64,000 bases of DNA from an uncultured bacterium. GTDB lineage: Bacteria > Verrucomicrobiota > Verrucomicrobiia > Verrucomicrobiales > DEV007. The position numbers and the translations under genes were made by a program. The DNA lies in assembly GCA_963977015.1 (NCBI GenBank), contig CAXBMO010000002.1, positions 288,001-352,000 of the forward strand, given 5' to 3'. This document shows, one piece after another, positions 23,774 to 29,790 of this stretch; position 1 is the first letter of the stretch; every line of letters begins with the position of its first letter. The notes beneath the pieces were generated by a model, which was not told the origin of the DNA, ran no database searches, and saw only the letters and a list, made by a program, of their open reading frames with translations.

Positions 23774-26719
23774 ATGCAATTCCTCAATCCATGGCTCGCG
23801 TTCGGCCTTTTGGCGGTTTCGATCCCCATCATTATCCATATTCTCACGAGGCAAACCGGCAAAACAGTAGATTGGGGTGCCATTTTGTTTCTGCGGGATT
23901 CGATGGTGATTCGCAACCGGAGAATCCGGCTCGAGGAAGCGCTCTTGATGGCCGCCCGTTGCCTCCTCCTGGCACTGCTTGCCATGGCATTGGCCCGCCC
24001 CTTCATTCCACCGGGCTCCAATACACCGTGGTTCGCGGTTCTCCCGCTCTTTTTCTTCGGCGTGGTTTGCCTGGGAATTGGCGTCGTCCTTTGGGATTTG
24101 GTGAAGTGGCGTTGGATTCTGCTCCTGTCTGGCACAGCAGCGCTGCTTCTGTGTGTCACCCTGGTCTGGTTTGAGAAAGTCTTCAATCTCAGCCGATTCA
24201 GCAAAGGAGGACGTCAGGACATCGCCTTGATTGTCGATGCCTCGACTTCGATGGCGCTCAATTATGACGGTCAGAGCAATTTCCAGCGCGGTCTGGATGA
24301 AGTCCGCACGATCGTGAAACGCAGCCCTCGAGGAAACTCGTTCAGCCTCATCCTCGGCGGCCCCACTCCTTCCGCTCGAATTCTGACGCCAACTTCAGAT
24401 CGCGAGTTTATTCTTCAACAACTGGATGACATCAAACCGCTCGAAGGTGGCATGGCGGCCTACGATTGCCTGACCCTGGCTTCGCTGGGGCTGGCACAAG
24501 GGAGCAATCCGGCAAAGCAGATCGTCGTGATTACCGACGGCCAGAATGTCGGTTGGGAAACCAACAAACCCGGGCGGTGGGCCTTTTTGAAGGATGCATT
24601 TGAGAATCTTCCATCTACTCCGCAGGTGATCGTCCGCGAAATGCCTCTCCCTTCGCACTTCCGCAACGTCTCCCTCGCTGACATTTCCTTCTCGCGCGAC
24701 ATTGTTGGGGTCGATCGTCCCGTCAAAATTTCCGTCACGATCGAAAACACCGGCACGGAGGCGGTTTCGCCGCGGCAAGTTGAGCTTGAGGTGGATGGAA
24801 AGAACCTGGTCGACCAAACGCTGGGCCAAATGATGCCGGGCAGTAAGGAGACGCTCCACTTTACCCATCAGTTTGAATACCCGGGAGCCCACGAGATTCG
24901 TTCCCAGGTGTTCGTCGATGACGAAATTGAGCAGGACAACACCTCGACCAGCGCTCTCAACATTGTTCGGAAACTTCGGGTTCTTTTGGTGGATGGAAAC
25001 GCCGGTGCTCGCTTCTTTGACCGGGCTACCTCCTTCGCCGCGCTGGCCCTTGCGCCGGGAACCACAATCACCGCACCTGGCGCCGATCCCAACAGTGAGG
25101 AAACCATGCGTTTCCTGGTCGATCCCGAGATGGTTTCCGCGATCGATCTGACACAAATGCCTTCCCTCACCCAGTATGACGCGGTGATCCTGGCAGACAT
25201 CCCGCGAATGCCGCGGGAAGTTGCGGAAGGGCTGGAACTTTTCGTCAATCAAGGCGGTGGGTTGCTCATTGCGGCGGGTCCACGCGCTTCGAGCGAATTC
25301 TACAATTCCTGGGTTTCCAGTGACGGCCTCCCCGTCATGCCGGCACGATTGGTGGAACCGGTTGTCCCCAATCCAAACACCGATCCCATCACGGCTTCAC
25401 TTGAGACGTTTCGCCATCCCTCCGTTCGCGTGGTCGCCAATCGCAGAGAAAGTGATCTCGAGACCGGAAGTTTTGCCCACTACTGGAAGTTGAAAGAGAA
25501 TACGGGCATCGATGCGATCGTCGGAGGTCGCCTCAACAATGGAGATCCCTATCTCACCGCTCGTAAGCTCGGCCTTGGAAATCTCGTGCTGCTAGGCTCC
25601 TCTCTGGATCTGAGATCCGGCAATCTCCCAAGTCGCCAGGCTTTCGTGCCCTTCATTCACGAACTCGTCTATTTCCTGGCGAACCCTGGCAATTTTAATC
25701 TCAACCTCGCACCAAAATGGGAACTCGCCCTCCATCTGGCGGGCAACGAACACGCCTTTTCAGGCCATGGGCTGCGCGGAGAATATTTCGCCAACCGAGG
25801 CGATCGTGAACCCAAAGTCACGCGGATTGATCCTGCGATTCAGTTCAACTGGCGCGGCGGGAGCCCGGCATCCGGGATTCCCCAGGACAACTTCAAGATC
25901 CGGTGGACGGGCAGAATCCAGGCTCCCCGCTCGGCAAAGTACAAATTCAGGGCCGAGGCCGACGACTTCCTCACCGTTTACATCGACGGGCGGGATGTGC
26001 TCCGCGCCGAATATGGAAAGTCGCCTCGCGTTCGCGAAGTCTGGCTCGATGCCAATCGCCTGCACGACATCCGGATTGAGTTTCAGGAAGGCACCAGCAA
26101 CGCCCAGGCCGTCCTCTATTGGGAATGCAAAGATCTCCAACGCCAGATCGTTCCGACGTCTGCCTTCCGCTCAGTAACCGGTTCGGAAGAAGACGTCATT
26201 GCCACCTACCGCGTCACCGGTCCCAGCGGCGAAAAACGAGTCGCCAAGATCGAGGCAACGGCCGGAGGAGCCGTCGCGAAAATCCAGGGAGATGTCGCGG
26301 CGGGAACCTACCAGATTCACATTCCTGATGATCAGCGCGAGAAGTTCAACGAATTGCTGGGCGACGACCGGGACACGATCCCGTTTACGGTGAAACGCGA
26401 CCCCGCCGAAAGCCGGCTTCAGCCCCTCACCAACGCAGATAAGGAATTTCTCGCCAACTACGTGGGATTGGTCGAGCCGCAGACTCCCGAGGACGTCATC
26501 TCGATTTTGAACGGAAAGTCTTTTGGAGAGGAGTTGTGGAAGTATCTCGCCCTCGCGGCCCTTTTCTTCCTGCTCCTGGAGGTGGGTTTGTCACGCTGGA
26601 TTGCGACGTCCCGGCAAATGGCGCAGGATCAACGGATCAAGTTCGATACAACGGAAGCCCCAGGGAATGGGTTTGAGAAGCAACTCAAGCAGGTCAAAAA
26701 GAAGGCAGCCGCTGCCTAA
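23774..26719 (+). CDS. BatA-domain/vWA membrane protein with CARDB-like and PA14 domains
   Basis: MQFLNP..PIIIHIL; MIDAS motif DASTSM and ITDGQ; GLRGEYF...IDPAIQFNW...NFKIRWTG (PA14); C-terminal ELWKYL TM. Confidence 0.85.
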   Translation: MQFLNPWLAFGLLAVSIPIIIHILTRQTGKTVDWGAILFLRDSMVIRNRRIRLEEALLMAARCLLLALLAMALARPFIPPGSNTPWFAVLPLFFFGVVCLGIGVVLWDLVKWRWILLLSGTAALLLCVTLVWFEKVFNLSRFSKGGRQDIALIVDASTSMALNYDGQSNFQRGLDEVRTIVKRSPRGNSFSLILGGPTPSARILTPTSDREFILQQLDDIKPLEGGMAAYDCLTLASLGLAQGSNPAKQIVVITDGQNVGWETNKPGRWAFLKDAFENLPSTPQVIVREMPLPSHFRNVSLADISFSRDIVGVDRPVKISVTIENTGTEAVSPRQVELEVDGKNLVDQTLGQMMPGSKETLHFTHQFEYPGAHEIRSQVFVDDEIEQDNTSTSALNIVRKLRVLLVDGNAGARFFDRATSFAALALAPGTTITAPGADPNSEETMRFLVDPEMVSAIDLTQMPSLTQYDAVILADIPRMPREVAEGLELFVNQGGGLLIAAGPRASSEFYNSWVSSDGLPVMPARLVEPVVPNPNTDPITASLETFRHPSVRVVANRRESDLETGSFAHYWKLKENTGIDAIVGGRLNNGDPYLTARKLGLGNLVLLGSSLDLRSGNLPSRQAFVPFIHELVYFLANPGNFNLNLAPKWELALHLAGNEHAFSGHGLRGEYFANRGDREPKVTRIDPAIQFNWRGGSPASGIPQDNFKIRWTGRIQAPRSAKYKFRAEADDFLTVYIDGRDVLRAEYGKSPRVREVWLDANRLHDIRIEFQEGTSNAQAVLYWECKDLQRQIVPTSAFRSVTGSEEDVIATYRVTGPSGEKRVAKIEATAGGAVAKIQGDVAAGTYQIHIPDDQREKFNELLGDDRDTIPFTVKRDPAESRLQPLTNADKEFLANYVGLVEPQTPEDVISILNGKSFGEELWKYLALAALFFLLLEVGLSRWIATSRQMAQDQRIKFDTTEAPGNGFEKQLKQVKKKAAAA

Positions 26720-26791: not shown

Positions 26792-26819
26792 TTGAACTGT
26801 TCAAAAGAACACTTACAAT
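26792..26819 (+). promoter_or_regulatory. sigma70-type promoter of a small, apparently leaderless ORF
   Basis: TTGAAC(26792-97)-16nt-TACAAT(26814-19); ATG begins at 26826. Confidence 0.7.
26798..26811. promoter_or_regulatory. LexA (SOS) box 1, Verrucomicrobia type
   Basis: TGTTC-AAAA-GAACA, a perfect match to TGTTC-N4-GAACA, lying between the -35 and -10 elements. Confidence 0.8.
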
Positions 26820-26832
26820 GTTCTCATGAACA
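26819..26832. promoter_or_regulatory. LexA (SOS) box 2, Verrucomicrobia type
   Basis: TGTTC-TCAT-GAACA, a perfect match overlapping the predicted +1 and the ATG. Confidence 0.8.
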
Positions 26833-26993
26833 GCACTTCGTCCCAACAGATACCTCAAGTGTCCGATCGAATCCAGTCACTTTTTCAGGACGCCAAACGC
26901 TATCGGAACGCTCGAAAGGTGAGGCAGCGCAATGAGCAGCCCCTCAGTTGCGAGCAACAGCTTCAACTGACTCTGAAGGCGTCGTCAAACTAA
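26826..26993 (+). CDS. Unannotated 55-aa protein, probably SOS-regulated
   Basis: Translated by hand: MNSTSSQQIPQVSDRIQSLFQDAKRYRNARKVRQRNEQPLSCEQQLQLTLKASSN; own promoter and downstream hairpin; below the ORF-track length cutoff. Confidence 0.65.
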   Translation: MNSTSSQQIPQVSDRIQSLFQDAKRYRNARKVRQRNEQPLSCEQQLQLTLKASSN

Positions 26994-27066
26994 GCAATTT
27001 CAAGAATTTCCAGGGTAGAACCGGTGCGTGGTTCTTGGTGTGTCCTGGGTAGAGCAAACAACTGTG

Positions 27067-27146: not shown

Positions 27147-27818
27147 CTAATCGCAGTTCAAAAGTTCGTCCCAAGCATGGATGATGCGCTCCTCTTTAAC
27201 CAAGATGTGCTCGCACATCCGTTTTTGGGCGAGATCAGAGTCCCGTGCCGCAATCGCGTCCACGATTTCCAGATGTTCGCGAGAGATGTCCTCCGGATTG
27301 GTGCAGGAATGGAGATCGATTCCGTAGAAATAGGGCTGATTGTCCTGATCCAACGTCGTCACGACGATTTTTTCGAGAATCTCATTTTGAGCCGCCCGCG
27401 CGATGAGGTGATGAAATTCCCGGTTCACCCGAATGCATTCCAGAGCATCCACTTCCGGATCATCATGTTCAGGAACAAACGGAGCTGCAATTCTGAGCTT
27501 CTCGATATCCTTGAGCGTTGCCCGCTGAGCTGCCAATCCAGCAATCTGGCCTTCCACCAATCTTCGCGCTTCGCAAACCACCTTGAATCGGTCCAACGTC
27601 AACTCGGGAACGCGATAGCCCTTGTTTGGAATCTGATCCAGAATATGCTCGTGAGCCAGGCGGGTCAGAGCTTCGCGAAGGCTGGCCCGGGAGACGTTCA
27701 ACTCTTCACAAATCGTCTTTTCGATAAGACGTTCCCCCGGTTTAAAGTCACAGGTCAGGACACGCTGACGAATTACATCTGCAATTTGGTCGGTAATTTT
27801 GATGGGACGGATAGACAT
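27147..27818 (-). CDS. GntR (FadR/FCD) family regulator
   Basis: PGERLIE...LNVSRASLREAL; NREFHHLI; EHLEIVDAI. Confidence 0.92.
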   Translation of the reverse strand: MSIRPIKITDQIADVIRQRVLTCDFKPGERLIEKTICEELNVSRASLREALTRLAHEHILDQIPNKGYRVPELTLDRFKVVCEARRLVEGQIAGLAAQRATLKDIEKLRIAAPFVPEHDDPEVDALECIRVNREFHHLIARAAQNEILEKIVVTTLDQDNQPYFYGIDLHSCTNPEDISREHLEIVDAIAARDSDLAQKRMCEHILVKEERIIHAWDELLNCD

Positions 27819-27939: not shown

Positions 27940-29790
27940 ATGTTTGCAAAACCCCTCTCGCTGTTGATCCTCGCTGCAGGATTGCTTCCTCTTTCGTCGT
28001 CAGCCCAGGATCTCGCGCCGACGGATGTGCGCCTCACACATGGGCCGATCCTCGGACGCCCGGCACATGACTCGATGAGCCTCTGGGTTCGCACCCAAAA
28101 AGCCGGCGCGATCCGGGTCTTTTACGGAACCGACGAAAAGAACCTCGATCAAGTCAGCGAGACGATCGAAACCTCGGTGGAAGACGACAACACCGGCATC
28201 ATTACGATCGGCAACCTGGCTCCTGACACCCGTTACTTTTATCGCGTTGATGACCATCAGGAATCGGGATCGTTTCGAACCTTGCCGCGAGCAGAAGACT
28301 ATCAGAACGCGGAATATAACCCTGACGGACTCTTCAATCTCCGGTTCGAGTTTGCCTGTGGAAACAATCAAAGTGCGGGAGGCAACAGCGTCGGCCCAAC
28401 GGTTCCGGTTTTCGATACCCTGAACGAGCAGGTTCGTGATTCGATCCATTTTGCGATTCTCAACGGAGACTGGCTCTACGAAGTTCAGCGCGACCATTCT
28501 CCGAAAAGCTGGCTTCAAAGCGTTGGCCTCGAACCCGACCAAAAACCTCGGGTGGTCGAAATGATGCCGACGGTGGTTGGTGTTTGGGAGAACTACAAAA
28601 CCTATCTCTCGCGCGGACGGAACCTGAGCGAGTGGCATCGCAACATCCCGTCCTATTACACCTACGATGATCACGAGACGATCAATGACATCTATGGCAC
28701 CGCTGAGACCGGCTATGTCAATCGCCGGGCCGTCTTTCGCGATATCGGCGTCGAGGCCTGGTATGATTACCTCGCCTGGGCAAACCCTCAGGCGCATGAG
28801 GCTCCCATCCACTACGGGAAAGCCGTGTTGAAGGCGGCAAGCGACATCCTGACGGACAACGATGCGGACTTCACGAAATTGAATCTCGAGGATCACGCAA
28901 ACCTCCACGTTCATTGGGGAACGCCGACTGCGGGAGTGCCGGATGCGGCGCTCGATTCCGAGCCTGGGGATCCCAATGCCAAAGTCTATCGCATCGAAGA
29001 AGTCATCAACGCCAACCAGGTTCGAATTCATCCTCCCGCCGTCGCAGATACGACCTCGGCTTACTCGATTGGGCGCCGTTGTTATGGCAAAAAATCGATT
29101 GGAAACTGCGACTTCTTCTTCGTCGACACCCGCAGTCATCGCGACCTTCACGATGTCGACAATCCGGCGAAACCTGGAGCTTCGATGCTCGGCAAACAGC
29201 AACTCAAGTGGCTCAAAACCGGGATTACGGAAAGCAGCGCCGACTTCATCTTCGTCGTATCAAGCGTGAATTTCATGGTTCCCCACGTCGGAAGCGGCGG
29301 AGGAGATGACAAGCAGCTCACGGTCAAAAAAGACGATGCCTGGACCGTGTTTCTTGAAGAACGGGAAGAGCTCATCGAATTCTGGGACAAGTTGGAACAA
29401 CCGGTTTTTGTCCTCACCGCCGATTTGCACAACAGCTACTCGATCAAGATTACCGACAATGTCTGGGAGTTTGCGAGTGGCCCTCACAACAGCATCAACC
29501 ACTCCCCTCAGGACGACGAGGGCAATCGACCAGCAAACGGCAAATTCAAATACGGCCCCCGCGAATGCGATATCCGCTGGTCAAGCTATGTGCTGAACGA
29601 CATCCCCCGCGCGGAGCGTACCTACCCTCATTATTGTGTCGTTCAGGTCAACAACGTCTTCAACAATCCAGTCAAGTTTGGCGATGAACGCTGGGTCGCA
29701 TTTCCGCACCCTCAGGTCATCTTCCAGTTCTTTGATGGATTAACCGGTGAACTCCGATACAGCGAAACCATCCTCAAGGGAATGGAGTAA
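27940..29790 (+). CDS. PhoD-like metallophosphoesterase
   Basis: Signal peptide; THGPILG; NGDWLY; YDDHE; DTRSHR; MLGKQQLKWL; TADLH. Confidence 0.85.
   Translation: MFAKPLSLLILAAGLLPLSSSAQDLAPTDVRLTHGPILGRPAHDSMSLWVRTQKAGAIRVFYGTDEKNLDQVSETIETSVEDDNTGIITIGNLAPDTRYFYRVDDHQESGSFRTLPRAEDYQNAEYNPDGLFNLRFEFACGNNQSAGGNSVGPTVPVFDTLNEQVRDSIHFAILNGDWLYEVQRDHSPKSWLQSVGLEPDQKPRVVEMMPTVVGVWENYKTYLSRGRNLSEWHRNIPSYYTYDDHETINDIYGTAETGYVNRRAVFRDIGVEAWYDYLAWANPQAHEAPIHYGKAVLKAASDILTDNDADFTKLNLEDHANLHVHWGTPTAGVPDAALDSEPGDPNAKVYRIEEVINANQVRIHPPAVADTTSAYSIGRRCYGKKSIGNCDFFFVDTRSHRDLHDVDNPAKPGASMLGKQQLKWLKTGITESSADFIFVVSSVNFMVPHVGSGGGDDKQLTVKKDDAWTVFLEEREELIEFWDKLEQPVFVLTADLHNSYSIKITDNVWEFASGPHNSINHSPQDDEGNRPANGKFKYGPRECDIRWSSYVLNDIPRAERTYPHYCVVQVNNVFNNPVKFGDERWVAFPHPQVIFQFFDGLTGELRYSETILKGME

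Follow-up and report, generated by a model that had tools for sequence, protein, structure and literature searches.

The Microprotein Gene and Its Surroundings

The window (the whole stretch of DNA analyzed, 64,000 nt) contained an open reading frame of 55 codons plus a stop, and the product of this ORF was MNSTSSQQIPQVSDRIQSLFQDAKRYRNARKVRQRNEQPLSCEQQLQLTLKASSN. The features read at the locus are collected in Table 1. The codons cag ctt caa ctg act ctg lay in frame with the ORF and encoded QLQLTL as residues 45–50 of 55, with five residues (KASSN) between the motif and the C-terminus. This was the place at which the original prediction had put a β-clamp-type motif. The basic helix-like stretch that it had described in front of the motif was found as well: AKRYRNARKVRQR corresponded to residues 23–35 and was located inside the helix predicted for residues 9–36.

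Table 1. Features of the microprotein locus; positions are those of the window.
Feature	Position	Strand	Basis
981-aa BatA/VWA/CARDB/PA14 protein gene	23774–26719	+	
-35-like hexamer TTGAAC	26792–26797	+	promoter scan; TTGAAC or a near variant at the same place in orthologous loci
LexA box 1 TGTTCAAAAGAACA, perfect palindrome TGTTC-N4-GAACA, between -35 and -10	26798–26811	.	pattern match
-10-like hexamer TACAAT, end 6 nt before ATG	26814–26819	+	promoter scan
LexA box 2 TGTTCTCATGAACA, over the start codon (ATG AAC = Met-Asn)	26819–26832	.	pattern match
Microprotein CDS, 55 aa + stop	26826–26993	+	ORF read in the window
Predicted amphipathic, strongly basic helix (residues 9–36)	26850–26933	+	AlphaFold2 and conservation
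Variable linker (residues 37–44)	26934–26957	+	low conservation, length variation, lower pLDDT
Clamp-binding-type motif QLQLTL (residues 45–50)	26958–26975	+	conservation and predicted DnaN contacts
Short variable tail KASSN	26976–26990	+	unconserved in the alignment
GntR/FCD regulator gene	27147–27818	-	
PhoD-like phosphatase gene	27940–29790	+	

The three neighboring genes listed in Table 1 were unrelated to DNA metabolism, and they were conserved only within the genus. No partner gene was conserved across genera; the flanking ORFs were common within genera only, which indicated that the microprotein gene is a stand-alone unit. The scan downstream of the gene found no terminator. An AGAACC/GGTTCT hairpin at 27017–27035 was rejected as a terminator, since its fold equaled that of shuffled sequences (z = 0.15).

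The microprotein belonged to an unannotated family, and all of its homologs in the databases were either called "hypothetical protein" or nameless. The Pfam scan of the microprotein gave nothing above the curated cut-offs, the only match being UPF0147 (E = 0.07), and detected no Peptidase_S24 domain. The NCBIfam models likewise gave no match above the cut-off (best E = 0.089), and the PHROGs search had no match. A single match (E = 0.25) was obtained among the PDB sequences, and the top score in the ESM Atlas was 0.83, under the lead level.

LexA Operators, Promoter and Predicted Start Site

The promoter scan identified TTGAAC, a 16-nt spacer and TACAAT, which together made 9 of 12 matches. 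The perfect pattern TGTTC-N4-GAACA occurred at 8 sites in the 6.9-Mb genome, compared with 1 site for the control pattern; with one mismatch allowed, the numbers were 162 and 57, respectively. The microprotein promoter was the only place where two of the eight perfect boxes were found together. A perfect box also started 27 nt upstream of the start codon of lexA, the product of which comprised 207 aa and carried the LexA_DNA_bind (2e-20) and Peptidase_S24 (8e-23) domains in Pfam. Because the box preceded lexA itself, TGTTC-N4-GAACA was regarded as the LexA operator of this organism, following the usual argument from autoregulation. Erill et al. reportedly described the same pattern in 2016 as the LexA motif of Verrucomicrobia. 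A perfect box was also located before an imuA/imuB-like gene pair (IMS, 6e-10, for the imuB-like gene; NCBIfam ImuA, 1.8e-5, below the cut-off), and another one directly upstream of a radical-SAM gene. Two perfect boxes outside the window (C13:124228 and C33:1686 of this genome, G000) adjoined no obvious SOS gene, and no similar micro-ORF was found near them; one of the two was 175 nt upstream of a 359-aa ORF resembling rpoA.

At least one box with no more than one mismatch was present in the promoter of 14 of the 15 orthologous loci described below, and the remaining locus (G037) had boxes with two mismatches only. The label "SOS" in the original prediction was thus well founded, given the two perfect boxes at the promoter and start codon, the same box before lexA and the imuA/imuB-like genes, and these orthologous promoters. 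A box with at most one mismatch at the start-codon position was found in seven of the 15 loci (G000, G274, G275, G276, G279, G238, and G269), where the Met-Asn start is explained by box 2 containing the first codons (ATG AAC A..). Asn2 was present in 22 of 23 members across the whole family, so box 2 cannot be the only reason for this residue.

The -10-like hexamer ended exactly 6 nt before the ATG in seven of the 15 orthologous loci; in the other eight, the best -10-like hexamer, which was often weak, ended 5–14 nt before it. None of the 15 loci had a Shine-Dalgarno-like word in the region from -20 to -4. The microprotein mRNA is probably leaderless and would start at or next to A26826, a prediction that follows from the promoter geometry with a -10-like hexamer ending 6 nt before the ATG. 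The presence of two operators, one of which covers the start of transcription and translation, suggests tight repression of a product that would be costly when made. Doubly boxed SOS genes are a precedent for such tight repression.

Other LexA-Type Boxes in the Family

The promoter pattern TTGAAC-N0-2-TGTTC-N4-GAAC was also used for the detection of diverged orthologs. It gave no further micro-ORFs, and it was found instead at lexA, at IS200-like transposase genes and at a non-coding stretch in genus g2. At four loci (L126, L128, L130, and L131; genomes G153, G218, G220, and G197), a TTGAAC promoter containing a LexA-type box (TTGAACAATGTTCTTGCGAACA) was located before multi-copy genes for IS200-like Y1 transposases (Pfam Y1_Tnp, 4e-15), and further copies of this transposase box were found in G170 and G125. 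This arrangement suggests that expression of these transposases is SOS-controlled in the family.

In genus g2, the promoter-plus-box pattern occurred in 21 of 58 genomes (loci L118–L125, L129, and L132–L138). At most of the g2 loci read, it was followed by about 70 nt of conserved sequence (…GAACATTAGTTAAAATTCACCGTGCGCAAGTAGAAAAGG…). This stretch had no micro-ORF with an ATG start and a clamp motif at its end, and two loci had a non-conserved ATG frame at the box. The conserved g2 stretch may correspond to a long leader or to a small RNA under SOS control.

Orthologs, Selection and Distribution

A six-frame search of the order (201 genomes) with the single protein gave marginal E-values only. 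The four best non-self matches (2.3e-4 to 0.028) proved to be real small ORFs, the promoter and operators of which were arranged as at the microprotein locus; the remaining matches were noise. A profile was built from these first small ORFs and used to search 134 genomes of the same family. Intact orthologs of 46–60 aa (E ≤ 6.6e-6) were identified in 15 of the 134 genomes of this one verrucomicrobial family, and they belonged to the genera g1 (all four genomes, including G000), g7 (six of six), g12, g17, g48, g53, and g57. Fourteen genomes with weak matches (E = 0.0057–0.047), which were partial or contained stops, were left out of this count. In a sample of 401 genomes from the phylum, with up to 16 candidates scored per genome, the only convincing match was in G000; eight non-self matches (E = 0.0012–0.0093) were short or partial. 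A full HMMER pass over 1.84 billion representatives returned nine matches. Eight of them were true members; the ninth was dismissed as a spurious match to a coiled-coil repeat protein of 850 aa. The names of the homologs in the databases placed the microprotein family in Verrucomicrobiales/Verrucomicrobiaceae. The family is, as far as the genomes searched indicate, small and young, and its narrow distribution suggests that the role of the microprotein is dispensable for most relatives.

The comparison between G000 and G274 revealed 29.5 synonymous and 8.5 non-synonymous differences (36.3 and 128.7 sites, respectively). The dN/dS values were 0.05, 0.13, 0.21, and 0.53 in four of 11 pairs, and dS was saturated in the other seven. 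The summed variability was 17.4, 14.3, and 27.2 at the first, second and third codon positions, so the third was the most variable. The Leu codons of the motif changed among the orthologs while the Leu residues stayed.

Conservation of the C-Terminal Motif

QLxLxL is the hexameric form of the clamp-binding motif, and QLQLTL fits this consensus of β-clamp-interacting proteins. The host has clients with peptides of this type. Its DinB/Pol IV ended in ...GEQLELEI (motif QLELEI), its RNase HII had QLSLPF close to the C-terminus, and QFQLF was found at residue 347 of its ImuB-like protein, roughly the clamp-motif position of mycobacterial ImuB. The microprotein carries the same kind of peptide as the clamp clients of its own lineage, and the most common motif forms of its family, given below, match these clients too. 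The known examples cited with the original prediction were correct according to excerpts of the sources, namely 346-QLVLGL-351 in Escherichia coli Pol IV (PMC11160790) and 6-QLSLPL-11 in Hda (PMC5397184). The pentapeptide clamp-binding consensus is given as QL[SD]LF in an excerpt of PMC9690074.

An alignment was made of 23 distinct family members, 15 from the genomes and eight from the protein database. All 23 possessed Q-[LM]-x-L-x-[LI] close to their C-terminus. QLELGL and QLELPL were the forms in two additional representatives, which came from the HMMER pass. Conservation among homologs had been named as a check in the original prediction, and the motif was kept in 25 of 25 members. The invariant columns among the 23 members were M1, L19, F20, A23, Q45, and L48. 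L50 was found in 22 members (one Ile) and L46 in 19 (four Met), and R15, S18, R30, and R33 in the helix were near-invariant. The flanking positions drifted, with Q44 in seven and T49 in 10 of the 23. The most common forms of the motif were QLELGL (eight members), QLELEL (three), and QLELPL (three); each of the forms QLQLTL, QLQLSL, QMQLSL, QMQLGL, QLELQL, QLELDL, QLELGI, QMELEL, and QMELPL was found in a single member. The tail beyond the motif had 0–7 residues and was unconserved.

A caution attached to the original prediction, that so short a motif could occur by chance, was right for a lone match. In a crude collection of 5084 long ORFs from this genome, QLxLxL occurred 73 times, and one of these 73 matches was among the 15 C-terminal residues. 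When the pattern was relaxed to Q[LM]xLx[LIF], there were 166 occurrences in the same ORFs. Seven of them were among the 15 C-terminal residues, and the ORFs concerned included the DinB/Pol IV homolog and RNase HII. A single match is therefore not significant, and the motif stands above chance because it is conserved while the neighboring positions vary. These counts would agree with the explanation that a chance ORF with a chance motif happens to lie beside real LexA boxes that regulate something else, since a lone QLxLxL is to be expected. However, there were 15 intact orthologs with mostly synonymous divergence, and the motif was kept throughout the family. This explanation was refuted as far as sequence data go, and the probability that we leave to it is close to nil. 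The sequence and its comparison with relatives show the ORF, the operators, the protein-level selection and the motif conservation. We consider it highly probable that this is a real, LexA-controlled and translated microprotein with a selected C-terminal motif.

Two paralogs of 181 and 152 aa were found elsewhere in the genome (C2:379130–379675, plus strand, and C5:243390–243848, minus strand; outside the window). Both ended in RQLELRFMN, in which QLELRF is clamp-motif-like and was noted 4–5 residues from the end. Neither belonged to a Pfam or NCBIfam family. The PHROGs search gave nothing for the 152-aa protein and only weak matches for the 181-aa protein (best E = 0.0028, HNH endonuclease family). 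These two proteins are further candidate clamp binders.

Predicted Structure of the Microprotein

The AlphaFold2 model, based on the 23-row alignment, had a mean pLDDT of 73.9 and contained one helix at residues 9–36, with block pLDDT values of 88 and 92 for residues 11–30. The tail was mostly non-helical, with a four-residue turn at 42–45 and block pLDDT values of 60–66 (66 for residues 41–50). In this predicted model, the motif was located in a flexible, exposed terminal segment, as is usual for clamp-binding motifs. The hydrophobic positions 12, 16, 19, 23, and 26, as read from the alignment, showed a heptad-like 4-3-4-3 spacing. The net charge ranged from +1 to +9 across the family.

The model also bears on the explanation that the microprotein is a classical SOS inhibitor of cell division, of the SulA, YneA, SidA, or SosA type, in which the clamp-like motif would be irrelevant. 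Small lineage-specific proteins under LexA control are usually of this kind. However, no hydrophobic run of a length sufficient for a membrane span was seen when the sequence was read by eye, and the model consisted of an amphipathic basic helix and a tail. Neither Pfam nor NCBIfam assigned the protein to a SulA family, and a division inhibitor would leave the invariant motif unexplained. A division inhibitor is accordingly very improbable in our judgment.

The near-invariant S18-L19-F20 in the helix (window positions 26877–26885) are identical to the last three residues of QL[SD]LF. They could represent a second, degenerate clamp contact or a part of a dimer interface.

Predicted Complex with DnaN

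The canonical DnaN of the genome (C1:143840–144934; TIGR00663, 357 bits) was aligned with 26 relatives and folded together with the microprotein alignment. The prediction of the complex with the cognate DnaN, another check that had been proposed together with the motif, gave a score of 0.75 (runs 0.77, 0.75, and 0.74), whereas the best of three controls had a score of 0.00. The control in which DnaN was swapped for an unrelated protein scored 0.00. Of 80 solved complexes, 58 attained the mark of the complex tool, as did 2 of 110 mismatched pairs; these counts hold only roughly here because our own alignments were used. The agreement of contacts between runs was at least 78%, and the partner pLDDT was at least 55.

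The predicted interface was formed by residues 41–53 of the microprotein and residues 171, 173–176, 239–243, 245–246, 277–279, 317, 319, 343, 345, 357, and 359–365 of DnaN. The contacts with the lowest error were those of Q45, L46, and L48 to the DnaN cleft. The DnaN residues presumably correspond to T172, G174–L177, P242, V247, N320, S346, V360, and M362–L366 of E. coli, which form the cleft between domains II and III. The helix was placed without confidence in the predicted complex. Clamp-peptide complexes are common among the structures solved so far, and the docking score may therefore partly reflect memory of this class of motif. The model supports the binding in silico, and we consider it likely that the motif binds DnaN.

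The C-terminal motif might instead be a degron or serve a partner other than DnaN, such as a protease adaptor or another SOS protein, and the likeness to clamp-binding peptides would then be convergent. Short Leu-rich linear peptides fit many hydrophobic grooves, and the evidence for DnaN was obtained in silico. Against this, each position of the motif fitted the clamp consensus, the Q and the alternation of L and M among them, and the motif also matched the terminus of the host Pol IV, QLELEI. A variable tail of 0–7 residues argues against a strict C-terminal degron, and the control with an unrelated protein in place of DnaN scored 0.00. A partner other than DnaN is thus considered quite improbable.

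A second, divergent DnaN-like ORF of 515 aa was found on contig C14 of the genome (L070:1111–2658, minus strand; outside the window). It scored 79.5 bits with TIGR00663, below the cut-off, and it comprised the N-terminal and central DNA_pol3_beta domains of Pfam and a long C-terminal extension. This ORF adjoins another one with a weak TraI_2 match and is therefore probably located on a mobile element.

Comparison with Known Systems

The clamp-binding motif is common to the microprotein and to Pol IV and Hda of E. coli, and the host Pol IV also ends with such a motif. The difference is that the motif of Pol IV and Hda sits on an enzyme or an AAA+ domain, whereas that of the microprotein sits on a basic helix of 28 residues only. 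The whole 55-aa protein seems to exist for its motif.

UmuD is a protein with the S24-peptidase fold and about 139 aa, which works together with UmuC, and UmuD2C slows replication before translesion synthesis. The likeness of the microprotein to this DNA-damage checkpoint of E. coli is a slowdown of replication after damage, which for the microprotein is a proposal. Unlike UmuD, the microprotein has no Pfam domain and no partner gene.

SocB of the Caulobacter SocAB system and RipA of the Streptococcus pneumoniae RipAB system target the hydrophobic pocket of DnaN and perturb replication, and suppressor mutations are located in this pocket, according to excerpts of PMC12795458 and PMC9690074. 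SocB is reported in the same excerpts to bind the pocket through the usual clamp-binding motif (PMC12795458, PMC9690074). Both proteins are toxins of toxin-antitoxin pairs that are restrained by their antitoxin, and their action triggers the SOS response or competence. The restraint by the antitoxin involves ClpXP. In contrast, the microprotein is predicted to be controlled by LexA at the level of transcription and has no conserved neighbor. No cognate antitoxin gene was found adjacent to it; the flanking ORFs differed between genera, and the gene had its own promoter.

The small protein p21(CIP1) is induced by DNA damage, and its C-terminal PIP box, which has basic flanks, blocks the docking pocket of PCNA and inhibits replication. 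The PIP box has the motif Qxx[I/L]xxFF (excerpt of PMC9690074). The likeness of p21-PCNA to the microprotein and DnaN is an analogy only, as the domain of life, the clamp and the motif are different and there is no homology.

DinI, SulA, YneA, and SidA are small, often lineage-specific and LexA-repressed proteins, each of which binds a single target. In these cases, the targets are RecA or the division machinery. To our knowledge, no dedicated clamp binder has been described among the small SOS effectors. The literature search, in which few subscription journals were represented, found clamp-targeting toxins, UmuD, polymerases and Hda; a clamp-binding microprotein that stands alone and is regulated by LexA did not appear in it. 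The microprotein would combine an interaction module and a regulon that are both known, in a form that is new, minimal and free-standing.

Proposed Role of the Microprotein

The original prediction of a damage-induced DnaN-binding peptide was supported to the extent that computation allows. The best-supported reading is that the microprotein is a LexA-gated ligand of the clamp cleft. In undamaged cells, LexA bound to two operators, one between the -35 and -10 hexamers and the other over the start codon, would shut the promoter tightly. DNA damage would lead to the cleavage of LexA, and the microprotein would then be made. Its tail (residues about 41–53, with the core QLQLTL) would enter the hydrophobic cleft of DnaN between domains II and III. 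This cleft is shared by Pol III, Pol IV, ImuB, RNase HII and the clamp loader, with which the microprotein would compete. An occupied pocket would slow or pause replication, reshape the exchange of polymerases, or do both, until repair is done.

By analogy, the microprotein might cause replication to pause, as has been proposed for UmuD2C and as the toxins SocB and RipA do. It might also change which polymerase occupies the clamp, for which the gatekeeping of clamp access by epsilon offers a comparison (excerpt of PMC11160790). A mechanism of this sort, in which the microprotein acts as a competitor or brake and which is counted here together with the control of polymerase traffic, is moderately favored.

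A pure competitor needs no invariant L19/F20/A23 face, which is a hint of a second function. This face, the heptad-like spacing and the strong positive charge suggest that the protein dimerizes (two tails for two clefts), contacts DNA or has another partner. The main rival to the ligand that competes for the cleft is accordingly a clamp-tethered adaptor or bivalent variant. In this case, the microprotein would not be an inhibitor; its motif would anchor it on clamps that stay behind at gaps or stalled forks, and its helix would recruit a second partner (e.g., the ImuA-ImuB-DnaE2 mutasome or RecA), grip DNA, or dimerize and so bridge both clefts. The invariant L19, F20, and A23 and the near-invariant R15, S18, R30, and R33 on a confidently predicted helix agree with an adaptor, as do the heptad-like 4-3-4-3 hydrophobic positions and the net charge of +1 to +9, and the DnaN docking result serves it equally well. 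However, no partner was encoded nearby, the neighborhood being conserved only within genera, and the predicted complex gave no confident placement of the helix. An adaptor is rather unlikely in our view.

The competitor reading can also be put in a more specific form as a bacterial counterpart of p21-PCNA, which we put forward tentatively and with some doubt. A leaderless, LexA-gated microprotein would dimerize through its heptad-like helix and plug both DnaN clefts. It would be a dedicated SOS checkpoint, or it would control whether Pol IV and the ImuB-DnaE2 mutasome gain access, and it would do so with no enzymatic domain, antitoxin or partner gene.

Clamp-binding motifs have so far been known as appendages of enzymes and a few toxins. 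If the proposed role is true, a free-standing, LexA-gated motif peptide would represent an SOS effector of a new type, which acts on the hub of the replisome and not on RecA, division or repair chemistry. It would also be a natural, evolved ligand of the clamp cleft, which is pursued as an antibacterial target (excerpt of PMC9690074). In addition, the locus shows that unannotated microproteins can be spotted through LexA boxes. By prediction, it also provides a clean example of a stress gene that has a leaderless transcript and an operator within its first codons. If its proposed role holds, the microprotein would offer a simple and genetically tractable handle on how replication is paused or re-routed in bacteria after DNA damage.
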